A DNA stretch of 64,000 nucleotides, from positions 62,001 to 126,000 of the forward strand of contig CT868072.1 in NCBI GenBank assembly GCA_000165425.1, read 5' to 3'. Under the pieces are notes generated by a model. The model was not told where the DNA came from. It searched no databases and worked only from the letters and a program-made list of their open reading frames with translations. A program made the translations under genes and the position numbers. How positions within the stretch are numbered: the stretch's first letter is position 1; every line of letters starts with the position of its first letter. This DNA is from Paramecium tetraurelia. Lineage: Eukaryota. This document shows positions 13,329-50,288 of the stretch, piece after piece.

Positions 13329-14970
13329 ATGGGTGTTTGTTAAACCAAAGTTAAGAAAACCACAGAAAATCCAAAAAAAAAGCTTAATAATAAAATTGAA
13401 AGAGTCTAAACTGAATTTACTGCTACTTAAGAAACAGGATCAAAAAATCCAGGACTTTTGTAATTAAATAGCTATAACGTAATCAACTCACCTTAATCCT
13501 CTGGATATGTGATACCAAGAAACCAATAAACTAAAACAGGATAAGTAAAGTTAAGTGGATTCACATAAAACACTCCGCAAACAGGACAAATCAGCATCCT
13601 TGAGATGAACGCTTCTAAAAAATATTCCATAATTAAGAAACGTTATTTGGACGATGTAATAAATATATTGAATTATTTTTAGTAGAAAAGTATATTGTCC
13701 AATAATAAGACTGGAATAATAGTTGAAATGGAAACCTATTTAAAAGAAGATAAAGAGTCATCAGAATACGTACTATGGATATCGAAAGCCTAATTGGTAT
13801 AGATAACTCATTAATAACATAGGATCATCCTAATCTCAATCGTATCCTTGAAATATACCAAGATTAAAATTCTTATCAGGTCATTTATGAATTTTTTGAT
13901 GGGAAATCATTGTCAGAACTAGTATCTGAAGACAATCGACTTCCCGTAGTTTAAATTAATCAGATTATGACCTAAATAATCTCTATTGTATCTTACTTAC
14001 ATTCTCTAAATCTCGTTCATGGAAATCTGACTCTTGACTCATTCTAATTTAAAAGAAATCAAAATGAAATCTCAATCAAATTAATTGATCTAAAAAGAGT
14101 TAAAATCAAAGAACCAGAATCTCTAAATCTGTTAAATTTCACATCTCCAGAATGCTTGGCTCATTTCACTAATTACACAACTGCAAGGGATGTTTGGGCT
14201 ATTGGTGTTATATGCTATTCTCTTGCCTAAGGTCATTTGCCGTATACAATACCTCCAAATACTGATTAAATTTCAGCCATTCAACTAATCAAATAAACTG
14301 AGATTCATTTTTAAGATAATGATCAGCCAATTGCTCAGTTTATTCAGAAAATGTTAGTCCATAACCTAAAAAACAGAGCCACCTTGAACTAATTGAAATA
14401 GGATGAATTCTTAAAGCAGAATAATCAGAAATAACTTCTTTCACAAGAAATCCTATTAAAAAATACATAATTCGCAAAGCCTTGTTGTTTCCTATAAGAA
14501 ATTATACTAGGCTATTTTTTGTAAGAATTCAACTGGGAACAATATCTTTAAATCCAAAAACTATTTTCAGAAGGAGATTCAGACATGGATGGCTATTTAA
14601 GTAAATAGGAATTATCAAATCTGTATAAACAGTATCTCAATGTGACAAATCCAGAAGAATTGGTAGAGTAAGTATTTTAAAACTATGGTATTAATAAAGA
14701 AGAAGGAGTTAGTATCTAATAGTTCTAGTGTCTAACTGCTAGTAGAGATATACTATTAACCGATAGCAATATTGAAATAGGATTCTAGATCTTCTCAAAT
14801 GGCAGAAAGGAAATCAATCTCAGAGGATTAAAAAAACACTTAAATTCTGATTCCGAACAATTGGTTGATGAATTCAATCGTATGACGAATGAAGAAAAAA
14901 TTGTATAAATTTTATCTTATTTTAGTTGAATCTCAAGTAATTTCACAAGTTAATTCAATTGATTATTTGA
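13329..14970 (+). CDS. CDPK-like pseudokinase with EF-hands (copy A)
   Basis: MGVCQ start, DHPNLNRILEIY, catalytic loop HGNLTLDSF, IKLIDLK, SPE..RDVWAIG, EF-hand DSDMDGYLSKQE; three short introns. Confidence 0.88.
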
Positions 14971-15812
14971 CATATTAATTAATCATATTAAGTTATTAAA
15001 TAAATTTATTTTCTATTAAATGATGCAAGCTATTCATTATTACATTAAAATTGAAAATTTCATAATTCATCCATTTAGGATTACCTTCACTCAAAATTTA
15101 TAAGTGAATGTATATTTTAGATATTTTTTTAAGTTTAAAATTATAAATTTATTGAGTTGAGGATTAAATTGCAAAGGATAATTATATAGATTATAACCAA
15201 ATTTTCAAATGTAGAAGGAATATTGAGAAAAGATAAAATAGTATGGAGCATCGATTGCATTGAAAGGAAATACTTATGAATTCTACTAATAATTAAATCT
15301 ATGAAAAAATTGAGGGTTTTAGTTTAAAATCTTTAATTTAAATTTGAAAACAAAAGATTAAGCAATTAAAAGGTTTTTCTAATTTCTTGAATATAAATTC
15401 AATTCTCAGGACTAATTTAGAATAATTCCTAAATTTACGCTTTTTAGCTGGACATTAATCAAAATCAAGAGTAAATAAGAAATATCACATCCATTTAGTG
15501 GTGCAATCTTTTTGTAGTCAGAATAATAATTTAAACACTCTAAATGGGTTAAATAATTTAAATTCTAATCCTTCCTTACTGAAGACAAATTCAGTATTTA
15601 TTTTTATCCAAATGAGTAGCTGCTCACTAAAATGTTGATTTTTCTAATAGTTTAACATAAAATTAATTCAATCTTATCTAAAATAGAAATCAATTAATAC
15701 TATTTTTCATAATAGTTTACCCTCTATTTGATTATCTTGACAATATTTTCATTTATATAATAAGTCCTCTTAAAACTAATTATAATTGAGATTATTTATT
15801 ATAAAAAAATTA

Positions 15813-17289
15813 ATGGAAATAAATAGAAACGATGTGATAAAGTTGATTTTATAATTTTTACAGGAGAATGGATTCAAAAAATCGCAAGAGGAATTGCAAA
15901 AAGAAAGTGGAATCTGTTTAAATTTGGTTGATTCGAAATAAAATCTTAAGAAAGACATCATAGATGGTAATGAATTATTTGAATCATTTAGGAAAATGGG
16001 ACTAAGTGCTGAATTAGATTAAGTTGTTCAATTTTACGGGTGATACATTATTAGATCTTTACGAATTGATAGTCTAAGAGTTAGTGGAAGTAAATGAGAC
16101 ACAATCAGCGCATTAATTTTTTCTTCAAATGATTGTTCCAAGTCTGCAGGAATACAAAGAGAGACTCCTAAAATTGGATTACTTAATAAGAAAACCTGGT
16201 AAATTGAGTATGAATGAGATTTACAATGATAATTTGAGTAAGGAATAAAGAAGAAGCAAGGTGGCTGATAGAGTGATTAGTGAATGCATAGAGGCTCCGG
16301 CTTGTAGATTGTTGGAATTGATTGGTGATAGTTTAAGACATTTAAATGCGAATAAAATAATCACGAATAACAAATATGACTTATTTATGGGTTTAGGATA
16401 GTCAGAGCAAAAAGTGACTCAAATTAGTAGAATAGAGAAGGTAATTAAATATTCAGAGAAGATGAGAGTTAATTGTGCGACATTTACTCCTGATGGACAA
16501 AACCTTATTACAGGATCTATAGATGGAATTATTGAGGTTTGGGATCCCACTAAATACTCAGTCAGAAATGATATAGAATATTAAGTGAACGATCAATATA
16601 TGATGCATAATAATTGCATAATTAATTTAAGTGCTAATAATGAATTGCTAGTTAGTTTGGATAATAATGGATAAGTAAAAGTTTGGAAATTGAAGACTGG
16701 TAAGTGTCTAAAGATAATTGAAAGTACACATCCTAAATAAATTGCAAGTGTGTTATTAGGTAAGGATCCTTAATAGATCTTCATTGCATCTGATTACATC
16801 TAATTATTCGCACTTAAGAGTGGAATCACTTAGAAATAGTATAGGGGACATAGTGGATTGATTTAATCAATGTTCTAGAGTTCAGAAGGTTCCAGAATAT
16901 ACAGTGGTGCTTTGGATCAATATTTTAAAGTGTGGGATACTCATTCTGGAGAATAGATTTACAGTCTGAAATTAGAGACAGCATTGGAGAAGATATTTTA
17001 CATTCAAGGATCTGTTCTGTTATGCCCAAGAGGAAAATAAATGGTTTTATTGAATAGCAATTTCTAAGAGGTTAAGAGATATCATTCTGAATCTGAATTG
17101 ATTAGTTGCGTGGCTTAAGGTGATTTTGCTTATGGTTTAGGATAGGGGTAATTATATAGTTATGAGGTTAAATCAGGAATTGGGTTGAAACTACTTAAAT
17201 TGCCAAGTGAGAATATGCAAGATATATGCATAGGACAGAATGTAATATTTTGCTATTCACAGAATGGTCATCTAATATTTATACAATGA
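15813..17289 (+). CDS. SMU1: SMU1-like spliceosomal WD40 protein (LisH/CTLH + WD40)
   Basis: MEINRNDVIKLILQFLQEN..LNLVDS..DIIDG|KWDQVL, APACRLLELIGDSL, and FTPDGQNLITGSIDGIIEVWD..RNDIEYQVNDQYMMH. Confidence 0.88.
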
Positions 17290-17997
17290 GTTAAAATTAA
17301 AATATTTGTTAATTAAATATGTCAACCAATCGAAACAATAGTTCAAGTCCTAGAGACTAATTGAGAGTATCTTCATTATCTTAAGAAAAGGAAGACACAC
17401 TTGAAAGCATTTGAGGATGATTATAATTAAACATGAATTGTCTTAAATTTTATAATTTTGGATAGATAATAATAGGGTATTACAGAAAATGGTGTAAATC
17501 CTGGAAATTTGGTCTACTTTGTTGAATCAAACGATAATTGGATTAGAGTGTTACAAATAGATTCATAAATAATGGAGGAATCATAGTTGTAATTTGTGTC
17601 TTGACTTATTTGTTTAATGTTTAGTTTAAGGGGTTTTTAAATTAATTTATTGATTTTTTACTATGAATATTTTATCAAATTTTATATATAAACTATTAAA
17701 CTTAAAATAACATATTGATTACAATTATGAGAGATTAAGTTGTGATCCTGTACAATTATATATGGAATTGAGATTAAATAATGAATGAGGTATTTCTATT
17801 TTGGTGCACTGAAATGTGAAAAGGGTTGTCAGTTAAACTATAACTTAAATAGAGAAAGTAGCTTTGTAAAGAACTATTTTTGGTTATTGTATTGATTATA
17901 GGTTTAGTATTAAAAGAAACAAATATTCAGTTTTATCAAATAAATTTTTTACTATATTAGTGTTGTTTTCGATATCAATCTATAATTAATTATAAAA

Positions 17998-19579
17998 ATG
18001 GGGCCTTGTTAATCTTAATCTAAATTGAAATCAAGAAAAGATTTGCAACAACCAACATTAATCAGAAAAACCGATCAAGTACTCACAAATAACAACCCTT
18101 CACTAAATCTTCCAAGCTTTTCCCCTAACCAAGAGGTTAATAGCGAGCCTTATGACGACACTAAAAAAAACTTGTCCCAACTAAAAGTGTATAGGTTTTC
18201 ATACAAGCAGTTTTACAGTGAAATCACTTAAGGAAACATGAGATGTAAGTTTTTGTGTTTATATAATAAAGTGTAGTTGAATTAGAAGTTGGTTCAGCAT
18301 AATCTAACAGGTAAAATCAGAGTAGTTGAACAATACGAAAGAAATTAATAAAATGAAGAGTTCATCAGCCAATTGAAGAGATATCCCCTGGTATTACATA
18401 AACCTTATCGTTCTATAGGACAACCCTCGGATCGTAACTGTGCACGAATTGTTCATCGTTGAGGAATACTACCATCTGATTGTCGATTATTGCAGCGGAG
18501 GACAACTCTCCAATTACTACGTTGACAAATCCATCATCCCATTCACTGAAGCTGAAATAGCCTCGATCATCTATCAAGCTGCAGAATCTCTTCGATATTT
18601 GGAACAGATTGGATTGACACATGGCTTCCTGGATTTAAATAGTTTCTCCAGAGTCGATATGTCACATCATTTTCAAATCAAACTTAGCGACATAAGGGGT
18701 CTATTTGTAAAGCCGAACTTGAATAGACATAATGTTTTCAGTCTTCCACCTGAAGCCTGCATTAAAAAAGACTAAAGTGAATTCGATCACCAGAGAGATC
18801 TTTGGAGTTTGGGAGTGATGGCATATTAGATGATATGTGGATATCCTCCCTTTGAAGGAAATACAATTGAATCAGTGAAATCGTAAATTAAAAAGATGGC
18901 TGCCCAATATAACAATTTTCAATTCGATAGAGTATCCAAATTATGTAGACAACTGATTCAAAGAGTGTTGGTGCCTGCTAAATAGAGAATATCGCTGTAA
19001 GCCTTTATGAATGATCAATGGTTCAAGATCAGAACCAAGTAAAATGATCAAAATCTTTTAACGAAACTTTAGTAAAATAAGGTCAAAGTTTCAGAACTCT
19101 AACAGTTGTTTTTGATATTCATAATTAAGAACATTTGCTCAGCTGATTAACAATAACTCTATACGGAATTTGCCAATTTGGATGAAAATCAAGATGGACA
19201 ATTAACCAAAGATGAGATTCTCAGAGTGTATTCGAATCGGTTTGATTCAAAGGCAGATGCGAAGTTGTTCATTGAAAACATTTTCAAAATAGCTGATGTC
19301 GATAAAAGTGGTACAATAGATTTCGGAGAATTTCTGGTAGCCATTACTGATAAATCTGGATTACTGACTGAAGAAAATCTTAAAACAACATTTAAGATGG
19401 TTGCATCAAGCAATGGTAAATTGACCACATAAAAACTCAGATTTCATTTCAACACTTCAGTCTCCAAATTAGATAAATTGTTTTTAGAAAACTTTAATAA
19501 TCCATAAGTAATTTATAAATATAAAAATTAGAATGTTGGGTATTCGGAATTTGAAGCACTGATGAAATAGTTATTGTGA
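17998..19579 (+). CDS. CDPK-like pseudokinase with EF-hands (copy B)
   Basis: MGPCQ start, QHNLTGKIRVVE, HGFLDLNSF, IKLSDIR, PPE..RDLWSLG..GYPPFEG; EF-hands DENQDGQLTKDE and DVDKSGTIDFGE. Confidence 0.9.
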
Positions 19580-19723
19580 TTTATACCTATATATTTATAT
19601 ACAATTATTCGAGTTGATTTATTGCCAACTGCATTCTCTTTTAATGAATAATTGCTCTTTATAATTATGAATTCCAGAATCATTGAATGATTAGTCTAAT
19701 ATTTTAAAGAAAAAATAAACAAA

Positions 19724-22553
19724 ATGGATCCCTATTAATAAATCACACCTATGTTCATTAAATAATGCTTATTGACAAGTGAGAGTTACAATCAAGCTAA
19801 GATAATCAAATAGGCTGTGAAAGACAATAAAGAGTAGTTATTTTAAACAATATGCATCACAATTTCAGAAGTTTTGGTTTTGAATCCAGTTAATGACCCG
19901 AATCCTCCCATGGCTAAACTATAAGCTGTAAAGGTATGTTTTAGATCTATCTTTGTAGTTGAGCAAAGATTTATTTGATATTTTTAATAAGAGTTTTGTA
20001 CATCTATTTGAAATACATGCTATATAATAATTTATATACTATGTAGAATTTGGAGATCCAAAAGACTCAAACAGAGGAAGCACAATCTTTGGATAAAACT
20101 CAGGTAATTAATTATTGATAATTCAGAAACATAAATTAAAAATATTGGAAAGTCCCTTGTATAATTTACTTCAGAATGCATTATTGCTTGGGCTTTGTTT
20201 TTTCCTAAAACCCCCTCAGGTTAAACCACTAAATTTGTATAGATTTATCAAAGTATGCAAAGTAAAGGATATAAAATATCTGGCTGGAATTATTATAAAG
20301 AAAACTTTGTAAGAAGTAATCAAGCAATAATCTAAGGTGAATAAATTGTTTAAATGCCAGTTGATGAAAATGGTGTCATTCTCAAAAGATAACTCTATTT
20401 TATTAAAGGATGTTAATAGATTTTAGATTATATGAGAAATATTTGCATCAATAATGAATAATGGGTACCTGATATGTTTAAACAATATTAAAACGAAATT
20501 ATAGCTAAAAATAAAGATGTGTAAAAATAGATTGATGATCTAAGATCCATAAAGAGGGAGGATCTAGTAAAATAAGTTACTGAATAGGCTATAATATTTG
20601 AATCTTTAGAAAAAGATCTATTGTCACTTACTAGTGAGAATTATATGGAATTTAGAGAAAAATATACCAAAAATAAGGATAATGAAGCACAAAATTAAGT
20701 TGCAGTATAGAAGTAAATAATATAGAAAACAGAATTACATCAACCATCAGGTGTTAATACTATTGAAATTTAATAACCGATTATAGTGAATGATGATTCT
20801 AAAGCATAATATCTCTAACTTGAACAAGAAAAATAACAAATTTAAGAAAAACTTTCTAATGCTCAAAAGGAGTTTAATGAATATAAAATAAACTCTTAAA
20901 AAGTGTTTTAATAATTAAAAGACTAATATGATTTAGAGATTAAAAGTAATGAAATCGAAAGACAAAAACAATATTAAGAAAAATAAAACTTAATGAATTA
21001 AATTGAAAAATTAAAGGCATAATTAAATAATGGGATTGAATAATAAAATAATTTGATGATAGGTTAATTAAAAAGAGATATTGAAAACTTAAAATAAGAG
21101 AAAGAATTAAAAATTTTTAATTTCCAATAAGAAATAAATTAATATTAATAAAAAGCTACTGAATTTGAAACTATCCAATAAAATCTTACACTTTAATTGA
21201 ATTTATACAATTCTTAAATACTAAAAATGCAAAATGAATATTAGATTCTAAAAGAGAATTAATAAAAGGAAAAATAAGAATTTTAAAAACAGATACTTGA
21301 GTCTCGTTAAAAAGAAGAAGATATGTAAAAATAACTGATAATTAAAGAAGAAGAAATGTAAAAATAACTGATAATTAAAGAAGAAAACTACAATAAATTG
21401 TACTTAAATTATTAAGCACTTAAAAAAGAAAATGAGAAATAGAAATGTATAATTTAAATTGAAATCTAGATGAGATTTAATAGAATTTATAACAAAAATA
21501 AATATCAAAAGATATTAAGCCCAAGTAGTTATAGACATTTCCATTTCCTGCCTTCTTCCAACATTTTCCTTAAATCCAAAAGTTTACGAGCGAAGAGGTG
21601 CCTTACAGATAGAAACCTATTAGTAATGAAAACTTAGAGCTCATTTTCCCTTATTTAAGCCCTCAGGATTATTTTAATTAGAAACCACAAAAAACTCGAA
21701 AAGGAAAGGAAATATATTTAGGTTAAGACATTAACAATTTTTCATATTTAAGCGAAAAAAACTTAATTTTCTTCAAACGGAGATGCTCAGGAACTTAAGG
21801 TATTTTGAATGTATCTTCTGAATTGGAATTTGGTTTGTCCTATTTGACTCAAGAATCATAAAACAAAGTTTATTTCACTTATGGTTTGTATATCAAAAAT
21901 TAATAAATAGCAAAGTAAAATTTGAAAGTTGAATTTTTAGAAATTGAAAGTAACTATTTATGCTATTTAGAATTCTAACAATTTTAAGCTTCTTCTGATG
22001 TATTTTCAAAATAATTAATTGAAAATTAAATTGAATTAATAGAGATATTAATAGAATCAAAAGTTATTCATCTCTAAGTCTTGACATTGTAAATTACTCT
22101 TTTTGAAACAAAATCATTCTAAATATCCATTCCTATTTGCATTTGTTAATAAATAATTTACGCTGATACCAATTTAGATAAATTTAAAAAAGAATGGAAA
22201 TAAAAGAATACTAACATAGTCAGAACAGCTTAACTCAAGCTAAACAAATATGTTAGGAAAGATATTTAAAGCATTCTAAAGTTGATACCAAAATCAATTA
22301 TATTGAATTTCAATAGAATTCAAGATTTTGAATAGGGCATAGCTGCAGTAAAATTTGGAGGCATTGGGAAGTTTAAAGATATTTCATTCTTAATAAAAGT
22401 ATAAATTGTAATTGATATTGTTTTCAGTTTGAAATTTAGCCAAACAATACATTTTTCATTTACCTATCTTGTCAATCTGCGCATACTAATAAAAAGGACA
22501 AAATTGAGTAAATATTAAAAGGGTATGCCTTTATATTGTAGTCGAATAGTTGA
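19724..22553 (+). CDS. Large protein: VHS/ENTH-like N-terminus, coiled coil, alpha-adaptin-ear-like C-terminus
   Basis: Helical N-terminus (PMAKLQAVK|LSKDLFD..LLQNALLAW), a long E/K/Q coiled coil, and C-terminal FKRRCSGTQGILNVSSELEFGL..ISIPICICQQIIYADTNLDKFKKEWKQ. Several introns; domain calls are by eye. Confidence 0.7.
21311..21385. repeat. 33-bp coding tandem duplication (KEEDMQKQLII/KEEEMQKQLII)
   Basis: aaagaagaagatatgtaaaaataactgataatt is repeated with one mismatch, plus a partial third copy. Confidence 0.9.
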
Positions 22554-22740
22554 TATTCTTGATTAATAATTTATTATGATAAATTTAGAAACACATTTGT
22601 TTACTTAAATTATATTAAAAATATAAATTCAATATATTAGCAATATTACAAAAATATAGGGCAATTGGGTCGATGGGGAAGGAGTTTATTATAATTTGTG
22701 ATATAATAAATTAAAACGGATACGATATGGTATTAAAAAA

Positions 22741-23636
22741 TCAACTAAAAATAGAATGAGGTAGAAGAGCATTAAAAAAGTCTAACGGAAATTTAGATTT
22801 TCCATTTCTCGGAATGACTAATTTATTAGGCTACCTTGCATTGATTTTAGAGTTCCCTATTCTATTATGTTCGGCGAATTTTTTTTTTAAATCTTAAGTA
22901 GACAAACAAAGCAAATCTAAAATTCTTTCTTTGGTTTCTTGAGTTAAGGCAGGCATTTCTTTATTTTTCATATTTTATTTGGTTTCCAAGAAGAATTAAC
23001 TATCTTCTTCTAGTTCGATATAGTTTTCTGTTTTCTTTTCAATTTTCTTTATGCCACTAACAATTTTATCTCCCAATATGGATTCAAATTTATCCCTTGG
23101 TTCTGTTGGAATTGATTATTTATGAAGACGAAATAAAATATCTTGAGACTCATCTTGTTTAGAAATGGAATGAGTGGCAATTTCATTGGGCTCTGTTTTC
23201 ATTTTAGTTAAGGGAGTAAAATTTTTTCTTCTATCAGTTCGAAGCTTGATATTATTGATATGTTGACTCTTCTGTTTCTTTGTAGGTATAATATTAGAGG
23301 TTTAATCGTCAGATTTGATTCTTCTGGTGGTTGGTAATTTGTACACTGAGAAATCGTTGATAATTTTATATTTTGATATGGATCCATCGTGCAATGGAGA
23401 ATTGAGAGTAGGAATACGTTTATTCGGGTTAATGCGATGTCTTCATATGTATAATAGAGTTACAAATCTTTGAATTGGGTGGGAGAGTGCAAGGGCTGAG
23501 CAATAATTGGAGTTTTCCTTCGAACTCCTTAACTGTTCGAAGGGGTTTCCTCTTTATTGAGAAAACTAATCTTATTTGTTGAGTGACGAGATGAAAGATT
23601 AGGAGGTCTTATGAAATAGGGTTGTTGTTGTCTCAT
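22741..23636 (-). CDS. Hypothetical basic low-complexity protein
   Basis: MRQQQPYFIRPPNLSSRHS..GKSKFPLDFFNALLPHSIFS-TGA with at least one short intron. Confidence 0.7.
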
Positions 23637-23664
23637 TTATTTTACAAATAAATAAAATATAATA

Positions 23665-25459
23665 ATGAGATTTCTAATAGTAAATGGATTCAATGCTTCT
23701 ACATCTTGTGCTAAAGTGTTTGACTATTTTAGGAATAACATTTAGAATGTATATAATTATATTTAGTTTTAGATGATATCAAAATAACGAGAAGTAGCAG
23801 ATACAGAGTGTGAGTATCATTTTCGAGATCGCCATTCTTTAGATGATTTTCTGTATGAGCCCGAGACAAGTTTAATCAGAATGGAATATGGGTTGAAATT
23901 TAATTCTATTGATATTGTCTTCATTATAGCTTCCCCAAATTCAAGACCTTGGAATCCAAATATGAGGAAGGTATAAATACTATATGAATAAGATAATCAC
24001 TTTGATTAGAATGTGTTTGAAGACCAAGAAGCTATTATTCTGTACTTCATTTGGTGCACAGGCTATAGCTTACCTTTGTTCAACAAATTTTTCAGTTGTA
24101 ACTAGTTTATTTTTGACCCAAGCATGCTTCCATTACTAACAATCATGGGGAAGGTTGCAAATTGGTGGATTTTCCAAAATATACACTGTAAGCATTGAAA
24201 AATGGCCCTAATGAATACTTCTTGGATTCCACCACTGGCGATCTTTACTTTTACTGTAAAATAACTGATGAGTGGTTACCGAAAGCCAACATAGGATTGC
24301 ACAATAGAAGAGATGCCATGGAGTATCAGTCGATTGGCAAATACATTGTCAAATCACCGACCTATAAACCTAAATAGAACATGTTGGAAAATCAAAGTGA
24401 AATGATGTGTTTAATCAAAAAATAATTTTTGCATCACTGGTTATTTAGAGGAGTTGCCATGGAGTTTGGCATCACCTCTTATAATTAATGGGATATCCAT
24501 GCAATCACGTTTACCAACCCAGACAAAGTAGTTATTGAGGTTATTTAGAAATTCAACTCGTTGGCAGAGCATAATTTAAGAGGACCCTTAATCATTGAGA
24601 GTGACAATATAATAGCAACGATGTTCGAGTTGGAACCCAAATAGAAGGATACTGTAAAAATATTGCAGAATTTTATTGACAATGCTGTGAAAATGATTAG
24701 ATTCAACAACAATTATAACCTTATTAGCATCACCAATGAGAAGTACTTTTCAGGAAATAAGGGATTAGACAATATTGAGTTAGTGTTTTAATAGAAAAAG
24801 AAGGTGGGCAATTTGAATCCTGAAGATTTGTTAAAAAGATAATAGAAGAATTTTATGCATGAATATAGGAAATTACTGAACACAGCCATCTAAGAAACAG
24901 AAAGAGATAAGATATTTCATGTTGGATTCTCGGTCAAAAAGGATAGATTACCAGAGTATTACCTTATTAATATAGTTTTGTATAGCAAAATAATATCCAG
25001 GAGAAGAATTATAAAGTGGTGAGACGAAAATCATTTCAAATGAAAAAGGCTCACTTCTTAAGGCAACAGAGTTAGATTAATGTGGGAGGAGATGATGATG
25101 AGTAGATGAGGGATTTGTTAGAGGAGGCTCCCAGAAAGCCTTTGCCATTCCAACGTGTCGTAACGACTGCCAACAACAGTAAACGGATAACCTCAAAAAA
25201 AAATTCAAATCCTAAGACACCAAATACTATTGAAAATTAAGACAATGAATTCCAAGAGTTTGAAATCAAGATGATCAATAATGGGTCTGTTAGAAAAATG
25301 CTACATCCTTCACTAGATGAAGAATTCTTAGGATCAAATAAGATATGGGTTCCAGGATTCCTTTCGAAGGATAAAAGCAAGAACAATCACATCATTCACA
25401 GTCAGAGAGGCTAACACAATCAGAATAACAGATTTCACACTGATTCACTTGTCGGTTGA
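23665..25459 (+). CDS. Hypothetical protein with class I glutamine-amidotransferase-like N-terminal region
   Basis: MRFLIVNGF..IDIVFIIASPNSRPWN..LIRMCLKTKKLLFCTSFGAQAIAYLC; three short introns; ends DSLVG-TGA. Confidence 0.7.
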
Positions 25460-25496
25460 TAAGAATAATTATTCAAATATAAATTATTTTATTTTT

Positions 25497-27425
<1,929 letters not shown>

Positions 27426-27584
27426 TTATCTAAATTTATATCATATTATCATTCATTTTTAGTTTTCAATTGAATATAAATTATACTCTTTTTTTGATCT
27501 TATTATGATTAAATCAAGTCTCAATTATATGTTTATATAATAATAATAAATATGAAAATAAATATTCAAATTGCAATTAGTATT

Positions 27585-29230
27585 TCAGAGGGCATCAAAC
27601 ATCAATTGTTAAAATTAATTGAAATTTATCTAATAATTATAAATTATTATTACTTAATTATTTTCATAAACAGAAAATTGCTATTTCAACTATTGTTTTT
27701 TGTTGTGGTATAATGTACAAATTTTCGATAATGAAATGAAGCCTTCCACATCTGATAGTATTTTAAATGTCTCTTTAAGATTGTCTTCAGTAATTAATGT
27801 CTCTTTATTTATAACTCCAATCAAAAACTCTTAGAAATCAATTTCCCCATTTTTATTGATATCAATCCCTTTAAATACAGCATCTACATGTTCCTTAACT
27901 TCTTGGATACTACTGAAATGTTTGATGTAAGCGATTGTTAGATCTTGCTTACTGATCTTGCCATCATGATTAACATCGAATTGCCCAAAAAGTTGATAAA
28001 GGATCTATTCTTAATCGGCTGAAAAAGTGGATATCATAAATTACAAGAAGCAACACTAAAGAAAACTCAATTAATGATTATTTTCTAATTGCTTAACTAT
28101 TAACTTCTATTCTTCATACTGAGTCTCTATATTGTGTTTTAGCCAATGATCATTTAAAACTTAATTCAAATTAATTCTTTTGGCAGGATCAAATTTGAAG
28201 AATCTTTTGATGATATCTACAGATTCAGGTGGCAAACATTGTGAATTTAAATCTTCTTGCACCGAATAATTCATAATCTCCTCAAATACTTCCTCTTTAT
28301 TATTGCCTTTAAAAGGGAATTCCCCAGTCAGCATTTAGTAGAATATTACTCCTATGCTCCACACATCCCTTGCAGGAGTATAATCTTCAGGAAATTTGAT
28401 AGCCTCAGGGGACATATATAGAAAGATATCTTTTTCAGAAATATATGATTTTAAGTAAATAGGTTTAAAATCGACTAATTTAATAAAATTAGAGTTTGAT
28501 TGATTACATTTCTAAAAAGAAGCCAGTGTTAATCCCCCATGATTGACTTCGTATTAATGAAGATGCTTGACAATTTCAATCATCTGTTTCAGAATCAATG
28601 CTGCTTACTATTGAGTGTAAACACATTTATGTAGGTGTTGGGACAAAAGAGGTCCATTGCAGAAATCATGAATTATTTGATAATTATTACTATCCTAGAA
28701 GATTTCGAAAATTCTTGTTAAATTAGGATGGTACTAAAAATATATCATATATTTTGTACCAATTAAGTTTTGACTATTGACTCAATGAGCTAAATTCCTT
28801 GGTCTGTTTTTTTAATCATCTCAGCCACCATTATTCTACCACTGAGATTATGTTAGACTACTACAATGTGATCTAACTATTTAATTCGATAACAAAATTG
28901 GTCTTTGCTTAGCATAGTGTAATGTTTTGAGAATTGGGCATTCTTAATCGATACCCAAGTTTTGAGGGTTCCACGAAACCCTGCATTTTCGACTATTTAA
29001 TCTGCCCATACCATATGCTTTACTTAACGAGTAGAAGGAGTTGCAGCAAACTTAGACAATACTTACTTTGGTGAGGAAGCAGTTGGCTTTATGCTTTTGA
29101 TGCTTCTTTCAGACCTAACCTATCTTTGAATATCAAGAGAGTAATCATTTTGAAGAGTCTATTTTGTTTGTTGTTCCCCATGTTCTTTAATTTGAACATT
29201 CTTTTGTCGTTTAGCTGAACAGATTCCCAT
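27585..29230 (-). CDS. CDPK-like pseudokinase with EF-hands (copy C)
   Basis: MGICS start, QHNLSGRIMVAE, YHPNLTRIFEIF, HGGLTLASF, IKLVDFK, SPE..RDVWSIG; EF-hands DVNHDGKISKQD and DINKNGEIDFQE. Confidence 0.9.
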
Positions 29231-29576
29231 ATTTAAATTTTTATTTTTTGTTTGATGTGATCAGTTTATTTAAGAAACTTGTATACTTAATTACTGTATA
29301 AATATATTTTATCAAATTAAGAAGAGAATTTAGAGTATTTTCTATATTAATTTACAATTTTCACTTTATGTGTTTCCTGGATATCAAATTAAATTAATGA
29401 AGAATTTGCGAGAAAGGAAGAATATTAAAATTGACTAAAGTAGAATTTCAGGGACAGGAATTCCATAATGATATCATTAAGTTAGTTTAAATGTCTTAGA
29501 TTTTGATTGGTTTGTAATGATACATAACTATTTATTTGTATGTATTTGGTATTATAATAGGTGATATTTTAATTAA

Positions 29577-32500: not shown

Positions 32501-35500
32501 GAAAATGGAAAAATGATCAAAGATTTAAGATTAAAAAAGGGAGAAATCATAATGGTTTTCAGAAAGTAAGTTAAAGAAATACAAGAGGCTAGTCTCTTAG
32601 ATGGAGATGTGTTATCAGAGGGTGCAAAATAAGTATTTGGAGAGATCTTTAGTGAATATTCTACTGATGGTAAAATGAGTAAGGAAGATTGCACTCGATT
32701 TGTTACTGGATGTACAGGCAATCCTTGTAGTATTGATGATGCCAATATCCAAAGAACATTCGAATAATATGATAAAGACAAAGATTCCATTCTGACTTTG
32801 AGTGATTTCTTCGACTTTTACACTGATTCTGCAAGGACCAAGAAATCAACAGTCTGGCTCAATCTCCAAACCTTACATTACAGAAATGATCTAATCAGAG
32901 GAGATAGAGTACCCCTACCCTAAGTCAATGCTTAGTTATTGCCCAGAGGATAGATTGTGTAGAATCAAAGATATTTGGATTTGCTCTTTGAACTTTTACA
33001 GAATTCTAGTATTGAAGTTTAAGAGAAGACTTGGTATTTATTGAGGAGGTTGCCTCCCTCCCCTTAATTGATTAAATAGATGCTCACCTTTGAGAACATC
33101 TAATAACCAACTGATTGGGATCAGATCTTAGTTAGCAGTCATTACAGATTACTTTACAGTCTATATATCATTGAGTTTCTGATGAATCAACATGACTCGA
33201 ATAATTTGTAAGCATTGATAGATGATCAAGAGATTTTGGTGTTAAAGGATAAATGGATGAGCAAGTTTTTACAACTTGGAGGATTTGATAAATTATTGCA
33301 ATTCTTTAAATAATATTAAGGTAGAAGTGTGAGTACATTGCCTCAAATCGAAAAAGAAATCTTGTCATTTCTTTTAAAAACATTCCAAAATTATGTTATT
33401 GCTGCTTGTGCCTCTAATGTACCTAATTTGTACAAGGCATCAAGGGGTATTCAAATCATCAAACCTTTGGATCAAGTGTTACTCGATATTAGATAATCTG
33501 AGGATCCTGAGGAGTTTAAATTACTGGTGCAAAAATTGAAAGAGAGTCGTCTTGGTGATAGTATAACTGAGAAGATCGAGAAATTCATTGGTGTTTTAAT
33601 CAACTTGATTTAAGAATTGCTTAAGAGTAATGAATTAGAATAGGAAGATAGATAGATTATTGAACATAGTGTTATAGTAATAATCGTAATCTTATTGCAT
33701 AATTAAGAATTACTTACAAGTAGCATAGAAAATGTCGAGTTCATTAATATTTTCTTCAGTGGAATCTTTACTGATAAATCTGATACTGTACGTAACTTAT
33801 TTAGTAGAGCAATACTAGTGCTTTGTCATGAAAGTCAGAAACGAAACAATCAACCTACCAAAATTATATTATAACAATTGATTTCCATGTAAAATCAATA
33901 AGCCAATTCATCCTAATATTATGAATTATTAAGTCAATTGATCGACAGTGCCTTTGAGAGTGAAGACTCTTAATAATTCATTGATTATCAACAATTGGCA
34001 TAATAAGTGATTGATGGTTTGGTTAATCATAAAAGTGTAGAGACAAGATAAAAGTCAACGGTTGTTGATAAGGTCCTTGTTGGTCTATTGAACCTATTGA
34101 CCAAATTGTACAAATTCATTAAGTAGCCAATCCATGAAATCATATTTAACGATTGCTTGTTTAGTCTTTAAGAGGAGAAGGAGGTGAAATGCAAATCGAG
34201 TGAAAGTAGATAAGCTGCATTCAAATTGCTTTACTAATTATCTTATCAGTAGAATAATTGCGAGAACATTCTTTTAAATATGTAATAGTTGAGTTAGAAG
34301 ATCCCAGTTATCAATAGGTGGAATTACATACCTTCAAGCGATATGAGAAGTTCCTTTGGCTACTGCGGAATAAGAAACCTTAGATGCATTTGCTATATGA
34401 ATGCCATGCTTCAACAGTTTTATATGACCATTCCTTTTAGATATGGTATCCTATAAGCTGATGACGGCAAAGAACCTGATCTTTAATAAAGCAAGACAGG
34501 ATTTTAGTTTGACGACAATGTTCTTCATCAATTACAATAAATGTTTAGTTATCTTGAGTTATCTGATCGAGTTGATTATAATCCCTAGGAGTTTTGTGCA
34601 GCATTCAAAGATTATGCAGGAGAACCAGTCAACATTTTCATTCAATAGGATGCTCAGGAATTTTTGAATATGATTTTTGATAAGCTGGAGAATCTCCTTA
34701 AGAATACAATCTATAAGAATATTTTAGATGGAGTTTTTGGAGGCAAAACCTGTACCTAAATTGAATGTCAGAATTGTAAGGCAATAAAGAACAAGGATGA
34801 GATATTTTATAATTTGTCTGTTCCTATTAAGAATCTCAAAAATCTATAAGAATGTTTCGATAAGTTCGTGTAAGGTGAAATCATCTCAGATTTTAAATGC
34901 GAGAGTTGCAATTAAAAGGTTGAAGTCAGTAAGAGATAATTGTTAGCTTAATTACCAAATGTTTTGATATTACATTTATAAAGAATTGTATTCAATTTGG
35001 ATACATTCATGAATGAAAAAATTAACTCTCGTCTAGAATTCCCAATTAATTTGGATTTAGCATAGTATACTATAAATTAAGATTAATGTACCTAATATAA
35101 GTTGGTTGGCATAGTAGTTCATTTGGGAACTGCTGACGTAGGACATTATTTTAGTTATATTGATATCAAAACTCAAAATTAATGGTTAGAATTCAATGAT
35201 CATAAAATTAAGGAATTCAAATTAAAATAAATGGAGAATGAATGCTTTGGTGGTCAATCTAATTTAGAATACAACGATAATGATGTTTGGGGGAACGGTT
35301 TTAGAGAGAACTCTTAAAATGCTTATATGCTGATTTATGAAAAGGTTGAAAAGGACAAAATTCAATTAGAATTCAACTCTTAAGAGGAATTACAGTTATC
35401 ATTGTCCAAATTTGAGAATTACACTATTCAACCAAATAATGTACTATTAGTAGATTATAATTCATTCCAACCGCATATTCCTAGTCAATATCATAAGAAG

Positions 35501-37603
35501 GTGAACAGTGATAATCAATAGTTTTTATTAGAAAGGAATCTTTTCAATCAAGAATTCATGAAATTCATATTGGAGATAAGTAACTTTGCGAATAGTGATA
35601 ATGCAACTGTGATAATAGAAATTCTCATTCGATTTAACTATGATTTATTGGCTCGTGCCTATGATAATTCTATTTCAGAACAATTTAACACAAAGATCTT
35701 GCAACTGATTCAGTAATATCCCAATAGCAACTATCTAGATTTGATATACTTTGGAAAACAAGCCAAAGTATTAGATCTCTTGCTGGTTTGCCCAGAATCT
35801 AGAACTCGTAAATACTTCGGGAAATTGTTAGCAACTTTATTCAATCAAGCAATTCAAATTCAAGGGGAAATCACAGAAAAGATTTCTGAGGGATTAGATC
35901 AATTATTCCTTATGATATAAGATCAAGTACCTAAGAATTGGACACGCTTTGATTAATATTTCTAATTTTGGCTAGACTTCATTCAGGAAGGTAAAGTCTA
36001 GATTTCATATTGTTTGAAGAAAGAAATGATTTTGTACATGATTGATTTCATTCTGGATAAGAGCAGTCCCTTGTAGTTATATGAAAAGAAGACTCAAATG
36101 GGAAATGCCTACTTTCCAATCAATTGTTAAATCCCTATGCAAATTATAAGCACTCTACTTTAATAAAATCATAAACTCACTCTCCAAGAGAAGAAATTGC
36201 TTTATTCACCTAAATTTTATGACAAGGCTCTTAAAAGTACAAAAATTGAAGAACTAACTCCAATCATACTTAAATTTGCTTATAACAATCGATATTTTTC
36301 AGAAATAATATCAGGATGTATTATGAGAGGTCTTGGAAATGGGGATATTGATGAGTTCAAAAACTATCTCTAAATGGCCAAACCATTCTTGTTAATCAAA
36401 GACAATCTATAAATTGAACGTTTGGAATGGCTAGTAGGAATCCCCTCATCGAAATAGAAGGACTCAACTAAGGTTTATGATAGTCAACTTACAGAGTATC
36501 CACAATTTGGACTTTTTGGATTGACCAGTTTAGAAGAAGATTACTGGACATTTGCTAGTCCTTTGGGATGGTAAAATAGTCTCTTTGATAATTTCTGTTC
36601 TCACAGGACCATTAAGAATTTGGATAATCAATGTTTGTTAATCCTTAAACTACTATTAATGATTAGTCTCGAATGTGAGACCTGTTATGATTATGTCTCC
36701 AAACTGCCTTGTGTTAATTATCAATATGTAATTATTCGTTTTCATTTTAATAGAAATAAATGGAGGAAATCTTCAGAGCATTCATTGAAACCTACATCAT
36801 AGATACAAAACGATTCTATTCCCCATTTCCTCGAAAACAAGAAACCGAGGAGGTGAAGGGCTACTTGGATTAATATTTTACCAAAGTGTCACAGATTCAT
36901 AATGAATTCTAACCTCAATTTGATTATATCATTGGAAAGACAGTAGAGATGAATAAAGTTAGAAAAACCTATTTCCTGTACAATCCTAACACAAAGGAAG
37001 AAACATAGATAGATGAAGGATCTGAGGGTTTCCCAGAAATCAAACAGTAGATCGAAGAAGGTAATTTGCAAAAGGTACTTACAATGGAAGTAATTAATAC
37101 GTTAATAATTCATATAGGAAAAGATATATAAAACAAATGTGTGCGATAATCTACCTAATGGAACTACCAATGAGTCCTTACCTTAATAATACGTTAAAGG
37201 AACCTAAATTCTTACTTATTCTGTGGATCCCAATTGTTAAGCTGCCAACTTCCTCTAATCCAATGCCTGGAGTGCTGAGAGTGACGAAAAAGCCACAGTA
37301 AGTAATCCAAGAATTGCTGATACGGTTAAATAGATTTAGATTCAGAATCACACAAATAGAAATTTACATGTGATCTTAGAAATCAAAGGTGAACCTAATC
37401 CTTGCCATTACATTCCCAAATCCAAAATACAATCACTTATGAGCTCTAAGAGTTCGACTACAATGTTCACAGCCATTAAAAACAACTGTAATTAGGAATT
37501 CCCACCACTTTAATTGACATTAGTGTATAAAAAATAAGAGCCGAGACAAGACTCTTACCTATATTTATCGTCTTAAGAAGAAATGAATTTGGAATTATTA
37601 TGA
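29577..37603 (+). CDS. Large ubiquitin-specific protease (USP9X/USP24/USP34-like, peptidase C19)
   Basis: Cys box GIRNLRCICYMNAMLQQ (about 34367), QQDAQEF, His box GIVVHLGTADVGHYFSYI..WLEFND, and LERKIQGLK in the helical region. It also has Tudor/chromo-barrel-like, UBL-like and EF-hand segments. One frame is kept from about 29982 to 36727. Confidence 0.92.
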
Positions 37604-40943: not shown

Positions 40944-40982
40944 TTTTTTATTTTCAAATAATATTAAATAAATTAAATTAAA

Positions 40983-44842: not shown

Positions 44843-45338
44843 ATTATTATTTTTATAAATTTAATTATATATACGCTAAATTTTTAATGAAAATATAACA
44901 ATAATATTGATAATAATTATGTGTTTTTAACTTCAATCATTTCTTTTAAGAGATATCCAATAAAATAAATTGTATAATTATTATTAATTATCATATAAAA
45001 CTATGATAAACTATCATCCACTATAAATTCTTCAAATTCTTCTACAGATTGTTGGTAATAATATTTAACTTTAAATTAATATTAATTATTTTAACATCTG
45101 AATAGGCATGAATACAAATCATAATGAAGTATTGTTTAAAATATTTTCTATTGTAGTTTTGAACTTATTATTATAATATATAAATAGAATTAGAAATGGA
45201 ATAAATAACTTTGTTTTTATTATAATCTAAATATTTTCTTATTTCATTAGGTATATTTGATTGATTGTGATTCTTAAGGACAAGGCATAATTCCATTTAA
45301 TAAATAACTATTATATTTAAATAAGACTAATCATTCCG

Positions 45339-45843: not shown

Positions 45844-46012
45844 TTTGACAAAATAATTTAATATAATAATTATAATTATAATTAAACCAAGCTTATCTTG
45901 GTGAAACACCATGGACAGTAAGACTTTGTTATACTAACCAATCGTATGAAGAGTATTTTGATATCATTCTATTATAATCTAATATGCTATCAATAAATTA
46001 TTAAAATCAAGA

Positions 46013-47570
46013 ATGGGGTCTTGTACTTAGAAACTGAAAAAGGCTAACTAAGAAAATCTCCAAAGAAAGCATATGCAAAAAACTTTGTAGGTTTAGCATT
46101 CAAAAAATCAATCAATCCAAACTCAAGAATCTGTTCAAGAGAAAAAAAAGAAGGATAAGTTTTTGTAAACTGATTAATCTCTTAACATCCATAATTTCAT
46201 TCTGATTTAAACATGTAAATTGTCTAAAGTCTATTCCATTGTTTCCAACAACATTAAGGATAATTAAGTTTAAACCCAAAATAAGTCATACATTGAAAAT
46301 ATGCAGATCATATAGAATAATCTGACTGGGAGAATTAGAGTAATGGAGACACTAAAATTGGACGAGAAATAAACTAAACAATACATGGATAATATTATAG
46401 CAAATCCTTTAGTATTTTTAATATAAAGAATATTAGTCACATCCTAACATCGCACAAACACATGAGATGTATTAGGACGATGAAACTATCCATATAATTC
46501 ATGACTATTGCAGTGGAGGACGATTAAGTACCCTATTTGTAAAACTGGGCCAGGGGATAAGTGAGCATATAGCTTTGAAGATATTGGTATAGATGATAGA
46601 ATCCTTGAATTACCTTCACATGAAAGGATTCAATCATGGTCATTTGACACAAAATAGTTTTTCAAGAACAGATGAATCAGAGAACTATTTTATTAAACTC
46701 ACTGATATAAAACCAATTTACTTAAAGCCTTAGGTTACGTTTGAGCAATTATAGTTTTTTGCTCCTGAAGTAATTGATAACGATTAGGATTATTCAATTG
46801 CTAGAGATGTTTGGTCAATAGGCATCATATTTTATAAGCTTCTAACTGGAAATCTTCCTTATTCATCAACTTAATCGAGTAAATTGAAATAAGAAATACG
46901 AAAGGGTATTCTCTAATTTAGTGATTTATAATTTGATAAAGTGTCCACCAGGGCTAAGGAATTATTAAGTAAACTACTCTCCTTTAATCCATCAATAAGA
47001 TCTGATCTTAATTAAATCATCAAATCACCAATGTATAGAAAATTAGTATCTCAAACTAAACAAATTAGCCAATAATCTGTAAATGCCTTGACGAATATTA
47101 AACCAGCCAATGTTATATAATCATTGTTCTTATAATTTTTGGTTAGTTAATTTTGCCAAAACTAATAAAATGAAATTTATTAAATGTTTAATAAATACGA
47201 TCAAAATGGAGATGCTAAATTAAATAGGACTGAAATATGTGAACTTTTATATTAGTAACTTAGATCTAAAGAGTAAGCACAAAAACATGTTGATTTGATA
47301 TTTTAAGCAATCGATACAGATCATAATGGTACCATTGATTGTGATGAATTCATTAGATGCATTGTAGACAGACAGGCATTGATCACTACTCCTAATCTTA
47401 AGGCGATATTCAAAATATTGTCTAATGGCAAAGGATCAATTCACAAAAAACGATTTATGCAATGTTTCTAGGTTGATTAAAAATAAACTGATGAGATGTT
47501 TGCTTCCATCACCAAATCAAAGAGAATCACTTTCAAAGTATTTTCCAAAACCATGATGGAACTTGTATGA
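46013..47570 (+). CDS. CDPK-like pseudokinase with EF-hands (copy D)
   Basis: MGSCT start, NNLTGRIRVME, SHPNIAQ, HGHLTQNSF, IKLTDIK, APE..RDVWSIG; EF-hands DQNGDAKLNRTE and DTDHNGTIDCDE. Confidence 0.9.
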
Positions 47571-47616
47571 GTGATATAAGTATTTCATACTAATTTTGAT
47601 ATATTATTTTATTTAT

Positions 47617-48361: not shown

Positions 48362-48752
48362 TTATTAAATATCTGTAACATTCAATTTCACATATTATAA
48401 ATTTATATAGATTTTAATCATTTAAATCCATAAAATGACATTTGATTTGCATTCGTATTTACTATTTCTTAAGGCATAGTAAGGGAATAACAGAAACATC
48501 ATGTACAGATTCTCACCAGTAGACATTTAAGTTTAAAACGATATTTTTGATTTCGTTATGTTTATGTAAGAGATTAGAATTAATTATAACCATAAGTTGA
48601 ATCATCATTAAATAAGCAAAAGTGGGTTGCATTTTACCAAGAAGTAAAATATTTTGCATTTGAGTTATTTTCTACAAATTACTACTTATGAAATAACGCA
48701 CAACATTTATTATCTGATAATAATTAAATAAACTCAATAATATATATTCGTT

Positions 48753-50288
48753 ATGGGTAATTGCAGCACCAAAAAGAAAGTCAAAAAAGATGTAGAAGTA
48801 CTTGTATCTACATAAGGACCCGAGGAAAAACCTAGAATTGATAGAAAATAATAAAAGTCTTACACATTTACTCCTATTCTTGCTAGATCACTTTTACCGG
48901 ACACAGTTAATGAGTCCGTTATTTCAATACGTTCCACCAAAAAATTTATTGATTCATCGAAATAACAAATCTAAATTCGAGCTGGACTCTTGAGAGTTTA
49001 TACCATATTAGGAGCCAAACCAGACTCTTATTTAGAAAAATTGGATGATAAACAAATAAGGATAGTCCAACACAATATAAGTGGAATTAAAAAGAGAGTA
49101 GAAACAATCAATAAATTTGATACTTCTACACAGAATTTTATTCTCAAAATCTAAAAAACCAGATTAGTATTTAAATATATAACATTAGTAAAATGATTAT
49201 ATCTGTCCAATAACTAATATTTATGAAGACTCTGATAAATACTACCTGTTATCCGACTATTGTAGTGGTGGCAGTTTAGCTGCATTAAAGGGAAAGTTAT
49301 AGGATAGTTAAGTGACTATCCTATTAAACTAGATGGTCACAGCCATTTCTTATTTGCATTCCAAAAAGATGGTTCATGGTAAGTTGTCTTTGGATAGTTT
49401 TCATTTATTAAGTGATTTAAATAGTTTATTTTGTAAGATGGTTGATGCAAACAGTTTATTTTATGGGAAAGAGTAGGTTAAGATAGAACCATCATTAGAA
49501 GATTACGCAGATGATGTCTATGCTTTAGGGACGATCGGTTATTAATTATTGACTGGTTTAATTCCTTATTAGATTAAAAACTATAAATAATAAGAAGATG
49601 GAGAAAATGAACTCATCTTATATTTTAGTGAAGGAACTTCAACTACTTTAAAATCAATACTGAAGAAAATGTTAGACAAGAATAGAAGTGAGAGAATTAC
49701 TTTGGAAGAAGTTAAAAGATAATTATCTAAAAATGATATGAGACATAAGTACTCGGATTTCTTAATAAAGCCTTTGTATTATTTATCAAAATGTAAACAA
49801 AGGAATTATTTTCACGTTGTAATTCTGGCTTTTATGCTGAACAAATTCAATTAGGAAGAAGAATGCATTTTATAGAAAATCTTCAATGATGCAGACCTTG
49901 ATTAAGATGGATTATTGATGAAAGACGACATCATTCGATTATATAAATCTATAGTTGAGTATGAGACTATAAATGTCGATATTCAACAATTATTTTAAAA
50001 ATTAGATGTAAAAAACAAAGAAGCATTAGATATAAAGGAGTTTATATCAGCAGCATTAAACCTCGATGAGTTATTGTCGTAAACATATTTAGAGGCCTGC
50101 TTTAAATATTTATAGAATCAAAGAGGGCAAATTACATGCAATAGTGTCAAAAAACATATTGAGATTAACGAATAATTGTTCAATTCGACTTTAGAGGACA
50201 TCAATGGGCAATTCAAGGTAATAAATCAATAGATATTTCTTAGGTAAATTATACTGAATTTACTGAGATAATGAGATAATTATAATGA
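48753..50288 (+). CDS. CDPK-like pseudokinase with degenerate EF-hands (copy E)
   Basis: MGNCS start, QHNISGIKKRVE, YYLLSDYCSGGSL, HGKLSLDSF, CKMVDAN, no APE, DDVYALG; EF-like DLDQDGLLMKDD and DVKNKEALDIKE. Confidence 0.85.

Follow-up and report, generated by a model that had tools for sequence, protein, structure and literature searches.

A Paramecium family of CDPK-derived pseudokinases as candidate calcium-gated membrane proteins

What remains of a calcium-dependent protein kinase (CDPK) when its catalytic site has degenerated? This question is raised by five genes, here called g1 to g5, that lie in a stretch of 64,000 nucleotides (nt) of Paramecium tetraurelia DNA (assembly GCA_000165425.1, contig CT868072.1, positions 62,001 to 126,000 of the forward strand). 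We refer to the whole stretch as the window and give all coordinates within it. The gene products are built like CDPKs, with the catalytic loop HRDLKPEN replaced by HGxLxxxSF. That they belong to a conserved clade of pseudokinases we hold with high confidence. With confidence only a little above even, we propose further that this clade is specific to Paramecium and arose once from a CDPK, that it keeps the whole CDPK body plan, and that its members act as Ca2+-gated binding switches at membranes.

For exocytosis and ciliary reversal under Ca2+ control, Paramecium serves as a classic model, and its kinome is very large. If the Ca2+ module has indeed been kept without the enzyme, the family would present a natural test case for the CDPK activation switch working without phosphorylation.

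The catalytic site

Could these proteins still be enzymes? The Pfam Pkinase profile (PF00069) matches all five genes above its gathering score (E 4e-17 to 9e-30), in the exon that carries the C-lobe and the tail. The match is limited to profile positions ~56 to 263, and none of the five first exons, which encode the N-lobe, has a Pfam match. The catalytic positions were read by alignment to solved structures and to a plant CDPK, and in a motif table of 133 rows.

Alignment to active CDPKs bears out the loss of GxGxxG and of the VAIK Lys that the first-pass annotation of this DNA had claimed: the glycine-rich loop is absent in all five genes, and the beta3 Lys position is Glu in each of them (within 13713-13733 in g1, 18310-18330 in g2, 28820-28840 on the minus strand in g3, 46328-46348 in g4 and 49083-49103 in g5; g1, g2, g4 and g5 lie on the plus strand). 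The replacement of HRDLKPEN by HGxLxxxSF is likewise found in all five, at the positions given earlier (14018, 18620, 28541 on the minus strand, 46635 and 49375). The loop reads HGNLTLDSF in g1 (14018..14044, +), HGFLDLNSF in g2 (18620..18646, +), HGGLTLASF in g3 (28515..28541, -), HGHLTQNSF in g4 (46635..46661, +) and HGKLSLDSF in g5 (49375..49401, +). The His of HRD is kept, the Arg has become Gly in every copy, and the catalytic Asp is replaced by N, F, G, H or K. Further along the loop, Lys is replaced by Thr, Asp or Ser, and Asn by Ser throughout. The printed alignment sets HGHLTQNSF of g4 on HRDLKPENI and its D-I-K on D-F-G.

In one respect the earlier reading has to be corrected. It counted the Asp of DFG among the lost residues, and the alignment shows it kept in all five genes, the changes lying in F and G; the motif is D-L-K in g1 (within 14084-14101), D-I-R in g2 (18686-18703), D-F-K in g3 (28458-28475, minus strand), D-I-K in g4 (46701-46718) and D-A-N in g5 (49441-49458), with Gly replaced by Lys, Arg or Asn. 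The alphaF motif DVWxxG, described as kept, is so in g1 to g4, whereas g5 reads DVYALG. Four genes keep APE, SPE or PPE. The fifth, g5, is the most degenerate copy: besides having lost the Trp of DVW and carrying the D-A-N motif, it shows a shortened activation segment without APE.

Kinome surveys call a kinase a pseudokinase when the VAIK Lys, the HRD Asp or the DFG Asp is lost (10.1101/168187). By this operational definition all five genes qualify, each having lost the Lys and the HRD Asp. In none of them is the catalytic residue set of the CDPK enzyme family (glycine loop, beta3 Lys, HRD Asp, Asn and DFG) present.

The same pattern recurs in 49 family rows, which are related and so do not count as independent. 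Asp stands at the catalytic position in none of them and Gly at the HRD Arg in 46; beta3 carries Glu in 38 and Lys in 3; the DFG Asp is kept in 42, the DFG Gly in none, and Lys or Arg occupies DFG+2 in 38. When 36 active comparators are taken as reference, 79 columns are at least 85% conserved, and 32 of these are kept in 17 family representatives. The kept columns comprise HPN, G160, L163, H194, H200, K220, D223, PE, D257, W259, G262, P274, R321 and the EF1/EF2 ligands. Those lost include G/G/G/V of the glycine loop, the beta3 A and K, the alphaC E, R-D-K-N of the catalytic loop, F-G of DFG and the ligand columns of EF3 and EF4. At the catalytic-Asp position the residue differs from lineage to lineage (N, F, G, H, K and others), which leaves no conserved base to take its place.

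Because the glycine loop is missing, the beta3 residue is acidic and no conserved catalytic-base residue remains, we expect neither productive binding of adenosine triphosphate (ATP) nor phosphorylation. Loss of catalysis is a strong inference from these alignments: phosphate transfer appears to be ruled out, and ATP binding probably is as well.

Kinases with displaced catalytic residues do exist, WNK and CASK being examples, and the family might by analogy consist of unconventional enzymes of this kind or have some other nucleotide-dependent activity. The DFG Asp, present in all window genes and most family rows, would fit such a view, as would the HRD His, the APE Glu and the subdomain XI Arg, all kept, and the few rows in which beta3 Lys survives. 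However, an enzyme of that sort would have to work without a glycine loop and, in most rows, with Glu at beta3; its catalytic-base position varies across lineages, its Mg-binding Asn has become Ser, and no alternative conserved Lys or Asp is found among the family-specific columns (Q101, N103, G201, S207, F208, K230 and others). We regard unconventional catalysis as very improbable.

Genes, ancestry and retention

Are the genes intact, and how did they come to stand together? The window is AT-rich, with a guanine-cytosine fraction of 0.26-0.34, and reads in ciliate code 6 as P. tetraurelia macronuclear DNA. The five start codons (MGVC, MGPC, MGIC, MGSC and MGNC) lie exactly where the first-pass annotation had placed them. 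Its description of the frames as open holds under code 6 once introns are removed, but none of the genes is a single frame, the numbers of introns in g1 to g5 being 3, 3, 2, 1 and 2. At all five loci we resolved long frames with frame changes by short GTA..(T/A)AG introns of 22-28 nt, and corrected the models using RNA-type contigs and public proteins.

On the plus strand, g1 (13329..14970; start MGVCQT) has exons 13329-13655, 13683-13796, 13823-14902 and 14926-14970, introns of 27, 26 and 23 nt, and a product of 521 amino acids (aa). Here the 26-nt intron was preferred to one of 53 nt, since it restores helix C. Gene g2 (17998..19579, +; start MGPCQS) has exons 17998-18244, 18272-18390, 18419-19507 and 19532-19579, introns of 27, 28 and 24 nt, and 500 aa. 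Gene g3 (27585..29230, -; start MGICSA) has exons 29230-28760, 28733-27654 and 27629-27585, introns of 26 and 24 nt, and 531 aa. Gene g4 (46013..47570, +; start MGSCTQ) has exons 46013-46411 and 46437-47570, a single intron of 25 nt, and 510 aa. Gene g5 (48753..50288, +; start MGNCST) has exons 48753-49166, 49189-50217 and 50244-50288, introns of 22 and 26 nt, and 495 aa.

The models of g1, g2 and g4 agree letter for letter with the public P. tetraurelia proteins P0178 (521 aa), P0187 (500 aa) and P0001 (510 aa), the last of these, 100% identical to the g4 product, being encoded in macronuclear DNA. The g2 introns at 18245 and 18391 are not among the gaps listed for the RNA alignments and rest on the exact match to P0187. 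The g3 model is 64% identical to the 532-aa P0017 over 531 aa, with 1 gap column. That of g5, built on the open frame and GTA..TAG introns, is 82.4% identical to the 496-aa P. primaurelia P0021 over 495 aa, again with 1 gap column.

All splice sites are intact, and one intron site is common to all five genes, between helix C, which it follows closely, and the x-H-P-N strand. Another intron interrupts the fourth EF-hand in g1, g2, g3 and g5, and an N-lobe intron is found in g1 and g2. Although code 6 has only one stop codon, the openness of the frames is not trivial, because the coding frames (495-531 codons) contain no in-frame internal TGA, while every one of the five alternative frames has 5-24; at the TGA frequency of the window, 0.023, the probability of 500 open codons is about 9e-6.

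The five genes are 22-32% identical in pairs. Within the window they match only one another and, weakly, one MAPK-like kinase at 51598-53190. The genes between the copies are unrelated (WD40, a deubiquitinase, a proteasome subunit and others), and a tandem array was rejected for this reason; the arrangement is that of an old, dispersed local cluster.

How far does the family extend? A family profile compared with 1.84 billion representative proteins gave 458,279 matches at E <=0.001, of which the best 150 were considered; 128 proteins of 380-700 residues from among them entered the motif comparison. A distinct top tier combines the degenerate loop with an MG-x-C start (P0001-7, 17, 18, 19, 21, 24, 26, 29, 30, 33, 34, 38, 47, 48 and 165); P0032 also belongs to it, without that start. 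Beneath it stand canonical CDPK-like proteins with GxGxxG, K, HRDLKPEN and DFG. The 15 family representatives whose names were looked up all belong to Paramecium: 14 are aurelia-complex proteins (P. tetraurelia, pentaurelia, primaurelia, octaurelia and sonneborni), and 1 is from P. bursaria. No ciliate other than Paramecium appears in the top tier among the best 150 of the 458,279 matches.

In UniRef, P0003-5, P0007, P0017, P0018, P0029, P0030 and others bear the name 'Calcium-dependent protein kinase' despite lacking the catalytic Lys and Asp. This name is unsupported by the sequences; it inflates counts of active CDPKs, and the annotation error propagates.

The first-pass annotation had attributed the loss of activity to one event in a single ancestor. 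We built a quick IQ-TREE tree of 94 rows (5 from the window, 31 from the family, 40 active comparators and 18 other degenerate CDPK-like proteins). A branch of length 0.61 separates all 36 family rows from the rest, with a support of 100 in the Shimodaira-Hasegawa-like approximate likelihood ratio test (SH-aLRT). The family received SH-aLRT 100 again in a tree of 91 rows from which six catalytic motif blocks and the long branches P0011, P0012 and P0013 had been taken out. Thus the family stays one clade with or without the catalytic columns, which agrees with a single loss. Both trees came from a short search with SH-aLRT as the sole support measure and no bootstrap, and 9 residues encoded by introns were still included in their rows for g1 and g2. 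Independently of the trees, the intron that all five genes share after helix C also points to one origin. A single origin of the degenerate active site is supported, as judged from these trees and the gene structure.

Other degenerate CDPK-like proteins (17-18 rows) are scattered in the trees among active ones, with 13 changes needed in the tree of 94 rows. Among the best 150 matches, P0052, P0057, P0060, P0063, P0069, P0105, P0124, P0150 and others carry differently broken loops, such as HLNINPDNV, HCNLKPESL and HKNIKPENL. That such proteins are interspersed with active ones implies repeated, independent losses outside the HGxLxxxSF clade.

Losses of this kind are documented for ciliates in bulk. 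In the accessible part of a Stentor kinome preprint (10.1101/168187), 42 of 308 CDPKs are predicted pseudokinases, and a share of ~22% is quoted for the kinomes of Paramecium and Tetrahymena. Likewise, the genome paper on Ichthyophthirius reports a CDPK expansion with likely pseudokinases. The counts in the Stentor preprint are made by loss of K/D/D, and that same part of it describes no HGxLxxxSF subfamily, single origin, synteny or half-dead calmodulin-like domain (10.1101/168187). Our full-text literature search found no description of the HGxLxxxSF subfamily, although a published Paramecium kinome survey or its supplements may list the genes. While ciliate CDPK pseudokinases are thus already catalogued collectively, the HGxLxxxSF clade is apparently undescribed, and its defining features are clear.

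Gene g4 has six Paramecium relatives at 77-91% identity, five of them 510 aa long and one 508 aa, and g1 has six at 68-79%, all of 521 aa like itself. Four relatives of g2 at 85-89% identity share its 500 aa, and two more are found at 66-67%. Counterparts of g1, g2, g4 and g5 lie together on a P. pentaurelia contig of 370,142 bases. In P. sonneborni the g1, g2 and g4 counterparts share a contig (378,733 bases), and in P. tetraurelia itself another contig (405,512 bases) carries P0024 and less closely related copies of g1 (69%) and g4 (77%). From this co-location and the history of the Paramecium genome we infer that the cluster is older than at least the latest whole-genome duplication.

Expression was followed in two oligo-dT runs (raw reads) and two sets of RNA-type contigs over 13000-29500, that is, over g1 to g3. 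RNA depth is 1-8 for g2 and 0.2-1.9 for g3, on the correct strand. The WD40 neighbour reaches 7-13, and its first mates lie on the opposite strand as do those of g2 and g3, which fits a stranded library. The 24-nt g2 intron at 19508 is missing from the RNA-type contigs of two runs, and both g3 introns (26 nt at 28734 and 24 nt at 27630) are absent from such contigs too. The transcripts of g2 and g3 are therefore spliced, whereas g1 is nearly silent, with a depth of 0-0.06 in the two oligo-dT runs. Given the conservation of its 521 aa, expression of g1 may possibly be stage-specific.

Exact lengths, the 68-91% identity among aurelia-complex orthologues and duplicates and, for g2 and g3, spliced RNA of the correct strand support the earlier proposal that the family has been retained under selection, and selection does appear to have kept it. 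The opposite view, that the copies, or at least g1 and g5, are decaying and non-functional, could cite the near silence of g1, the parts of the active-site region missing from g5 (part of the activation segment, APE, Trp of DVW) and the low identity among paralogues. But decay should have left in-frame stops or damaged splice sites, and there are none; all 6 homologues of g1 have kept its length, and g5 matches its P. primaurelia counterpart with a single gap column. We give decay hardly any credence.

The calmodulin-like domain and a possible switch

What, then, could have been retained? Among solved structures, 316 distinct sequences match at E <=1e-10, and the best 18 are all CDPKs, headed by Cryptosporidium CDPK1 (3igo, E 2e-35). 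An AlphaFold2 model of P0001, identical to g4, from a 68-row alignment has a mean predicted local distance difference test score (pLDDT) of 79.9 and a predicted template modelling score (pTM) of 0.79, with residues 1-58 and 80-93 disordered. Foldseek places this model over ~480 columns on the Ca2+-bound or activated CDPKs 4ysj, 3lij, 3hx4 and 3igo, with template modelling (TM) scores of 0.69-0.75 (0.72-0.75 for the first three) and a root mean square deviation (rmsd) of 4-5 A. Autoinhibited CDPKs (3i7c, 3hzt and 4rgj) match it only locally, at TM 0.38-0.44 and rmsd ~24 A. A fold match of ~480 columns shows that the whole CDPK architecture is retained.

Canonical CDPKs, such as apicomplexan CDPK1/3 (3igo, 3hx4 and 3lij) and plant CPKs, are the best matches in sequence and fold. 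They share with the five genes the domain order: an acylatable N-terminus, a CAMK-type kinase domain, a junction helix and a calmodulin-like domain of four helix-loop-helix units. Sequence and fold matches agree that kinase, junction and calmodulin-like domain stand in one chain in the window proteins, as kinship with CDPKs demands. Unlike canonical CDPKs, the window genes have no glycine loop, beta3 Lys, HRD Arg-Asp, catalytic Lys/Asn, DFG Gly or EF3/EF4 ligands.

Pfam finds an EF-hand pair (EF-hand_7) in all five genes. In a pattern scan, EF1 is a canonical Ca2+ loop in all five and EF2 in three (g2, g3 and g4), while EF3 and EF4 are canonical in none, so that by this count no gene has four functional EF-hands. 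The loops of EF1 and EF2 lie at 14576-14611 and 14687-14722 in g1 (+), 19181-19216 and 19295-19330 in g2 (+), 27942-27977 and 27828-27863 in g3 (-), 47199-47234 and 47313-47348 in g4 (+), and 49894-49929 and 50005-50040 in g5 (+); in g1 and g5 the second of them is degenerate. A Ca2+ response is plausible through the N-lobe EF pair only, since EF3 and EF4 are dead throughout.

The calmodulin-like lobes are generally the best conserved part of the proteins, with a mean pairwise identity of 77-93% in the g1, g2 and g4 orthologue sets. The pseudokinase domain reaches 73-86%, and the lobes outrank it with one exception, the EF3-4 lobe of g2 (84%). Lowest of all is the N-terminal tail in the g1 and g4 sets (~64-65%); in g2 it stands at 87%. 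Among the segments, the EF1-2 lobe comes first in the g2 set; in the g1 and g4 sets only the EF3-4 lobe surpasses it.

At the other end of the chain, an MG-x-C start is found in all five genes and in 47 of the 49 family rows, and residues 5-25 carry 5-8 Lys/Arg in each of the five. Together these features should place the proteins on a membrane; lipid anchoring is here predicted from the motif.

We suggest the following mechanism, in which the body plan is kept as acylation-type N-terminus with basic patch, kinase fold, junction helix and calmodulin-like domain. Myristoyl-Gly2, palmitoyl-Cys4 and the Lys/Arg patch would seat the protein on the membrane. The junction, which is conserved, and the EF1-2 lobe should remain responsive to Ca2+. 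Its binding to the surviving EF1/EF2 pair would shift the calmodulin-like domain against the dead kinase domain, as happens when a CDPK is activated, and this movement would expose or hide a binding surface. The output would be Ca2+-gated binding instead of phosphorylation, the protein serving as a scaffold, a decoy or an allosteric partner, for example of active CDPKs or of their substrates. Taken by itself, the idea of a Ca2+-gated membrane switch seems to us about evenly poised between right and wrong.

One detail of the empty cleft may belong here. The beta3 Glu is accompanied by Lys or Arg at DFG+2 in 9 of ~16 lineages, and P0033 and P0032 show the reversed polarity (Arg/Lys with Glu), the independent lineages being too few for statistics. 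Such a charge pair could hold the cleft closed. Extending the mechanism, we can imagine that the Ca2+-driven domain swing of CDPKs has been kept as an enzyme-free switch: lipid-anchored, Ca2+-gated modules at the Paramecium cortex, their clefts shut by the charge pair, with paralogues serving different partners at exocytosis sites, cilia or alveolar sacs. This wider picture is speculative, and we offer it as a doubtful possibility.

A simpler arrangement is conceivable, in which the calmodulin-like domain is permanently docked and the proteins are Ca2+-independent, structural pseudokinases that serve constitutively as scaffolds or adaptors at the membrane. EF3 and EF4 have degenerated in every gene and EF2 in two; the degenerate EF3-4 lobe is nevertheless 78-89% conserved in the orthologue sets, which fits a structural role, and the g4 model shows one fixed, activated-like pose. 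On the other hand, a permanently docked domain would hardly explain why every canonical ligand position is kept in EF1 of all five genes and in EF2 of g2, g3 and g4, or why the EF1-2 lobe ranks first or second in conservation in each set. We consider constitutive scaffolding unlikely, if less so than the alternatives weighed above, and continue to favour the Ca2+-gated switch.

Several observations weigh against that preference. Firstly, some copies may sense Ca2+ weakly or not at all, because g1 and g5 have one canonical EF loop each and EF3 and EF4 are dead in all five. Secondly, the PROSITE myristoylation pattern fits three of the five N-termini; the exceptions are g2, where Pro follows the Gly, and g4, where Gln occupies the Ser/Thr position. 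As for the g4 model, its activated-like pose is a prediction and no evidence of a state. The preserved DFG Asp, APE Glu and HRD His leave slight room for unusual activity, and the near silence of g1 is a further point against the proposal. As to the single origin, long-branch attraction between rows that evolve fast could have inflated the clade, and the true active sister from Paramecium may be missing from the comparators.

Two known systems help to place the proposed switch. The mammalian vesicle-associated CaMKv (PMC9371321) is a CAMK-group pseudokinase of Ca2+/calmodulin signalling whose membrane binding is regulated by palmitoylation, and is thus a functional analogue of the mechanism. 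It lacks a fused calmodulin-like domain, is of unrelated origin and is known only from animals.

The reverse case is found in plants. CDPK-related kinases (CRKs) are derivatives of CDPKs that kept an active kinase while their EF-hands degenerated; there the kinase is alive and the EF-hands are lost, whereas the window genes combine a dead kinase with a surviving N-lobe EF pair.

Neighbouring genes in the window

The MAPK-like gene at 51598-53190 (-), just downstream of g5, encodes an ordinary, active-looking MAPK-type kinase with a T-E-Y motif (Pkinase E 1e-48). Between g3 and g4, a single frame of 2,312 codons (29918-36856, +) specifies a deubiquitinase of the USP9X/UBP24 type (UCH E 1e-51 plus ARM repeat). 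An open frame of more than 2,900 codons (55198-63999, -) runs off the end of the window; it contains many Cys-rich furin-like repeats and a REJ domain (E 9e-20), with a hydrophobic region on the C-terminal side, so its product is probably a membrane protein of very large size, of the surface or receptor-like kind.

Near the other end, the frame at 552-2066 (-) has regularly spaced Arg/Lys resembling a voltage-sensor helix, followed by a stretch like class III nucleotide cyclases; no Pfam match at E <=1e-5 was found for it. Channel-cyclase fusions are present in Paramecium.

The frame at 26304-27425 (+) opens with the final ~40 residues of a kinase domain (Pkinase positions 222-263) and continues into a Gln-rich tail. 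A kinase gene of several exons, beginning near 24300-25500 in a region of high RNA depth, probably ends with this exon. At 25620 (A>G) and 25629 (T>A), RNA of two runs differs from the window, at each site in 5 of 5 and 7 of 9 reads, which could reflect a strain difference or editing.

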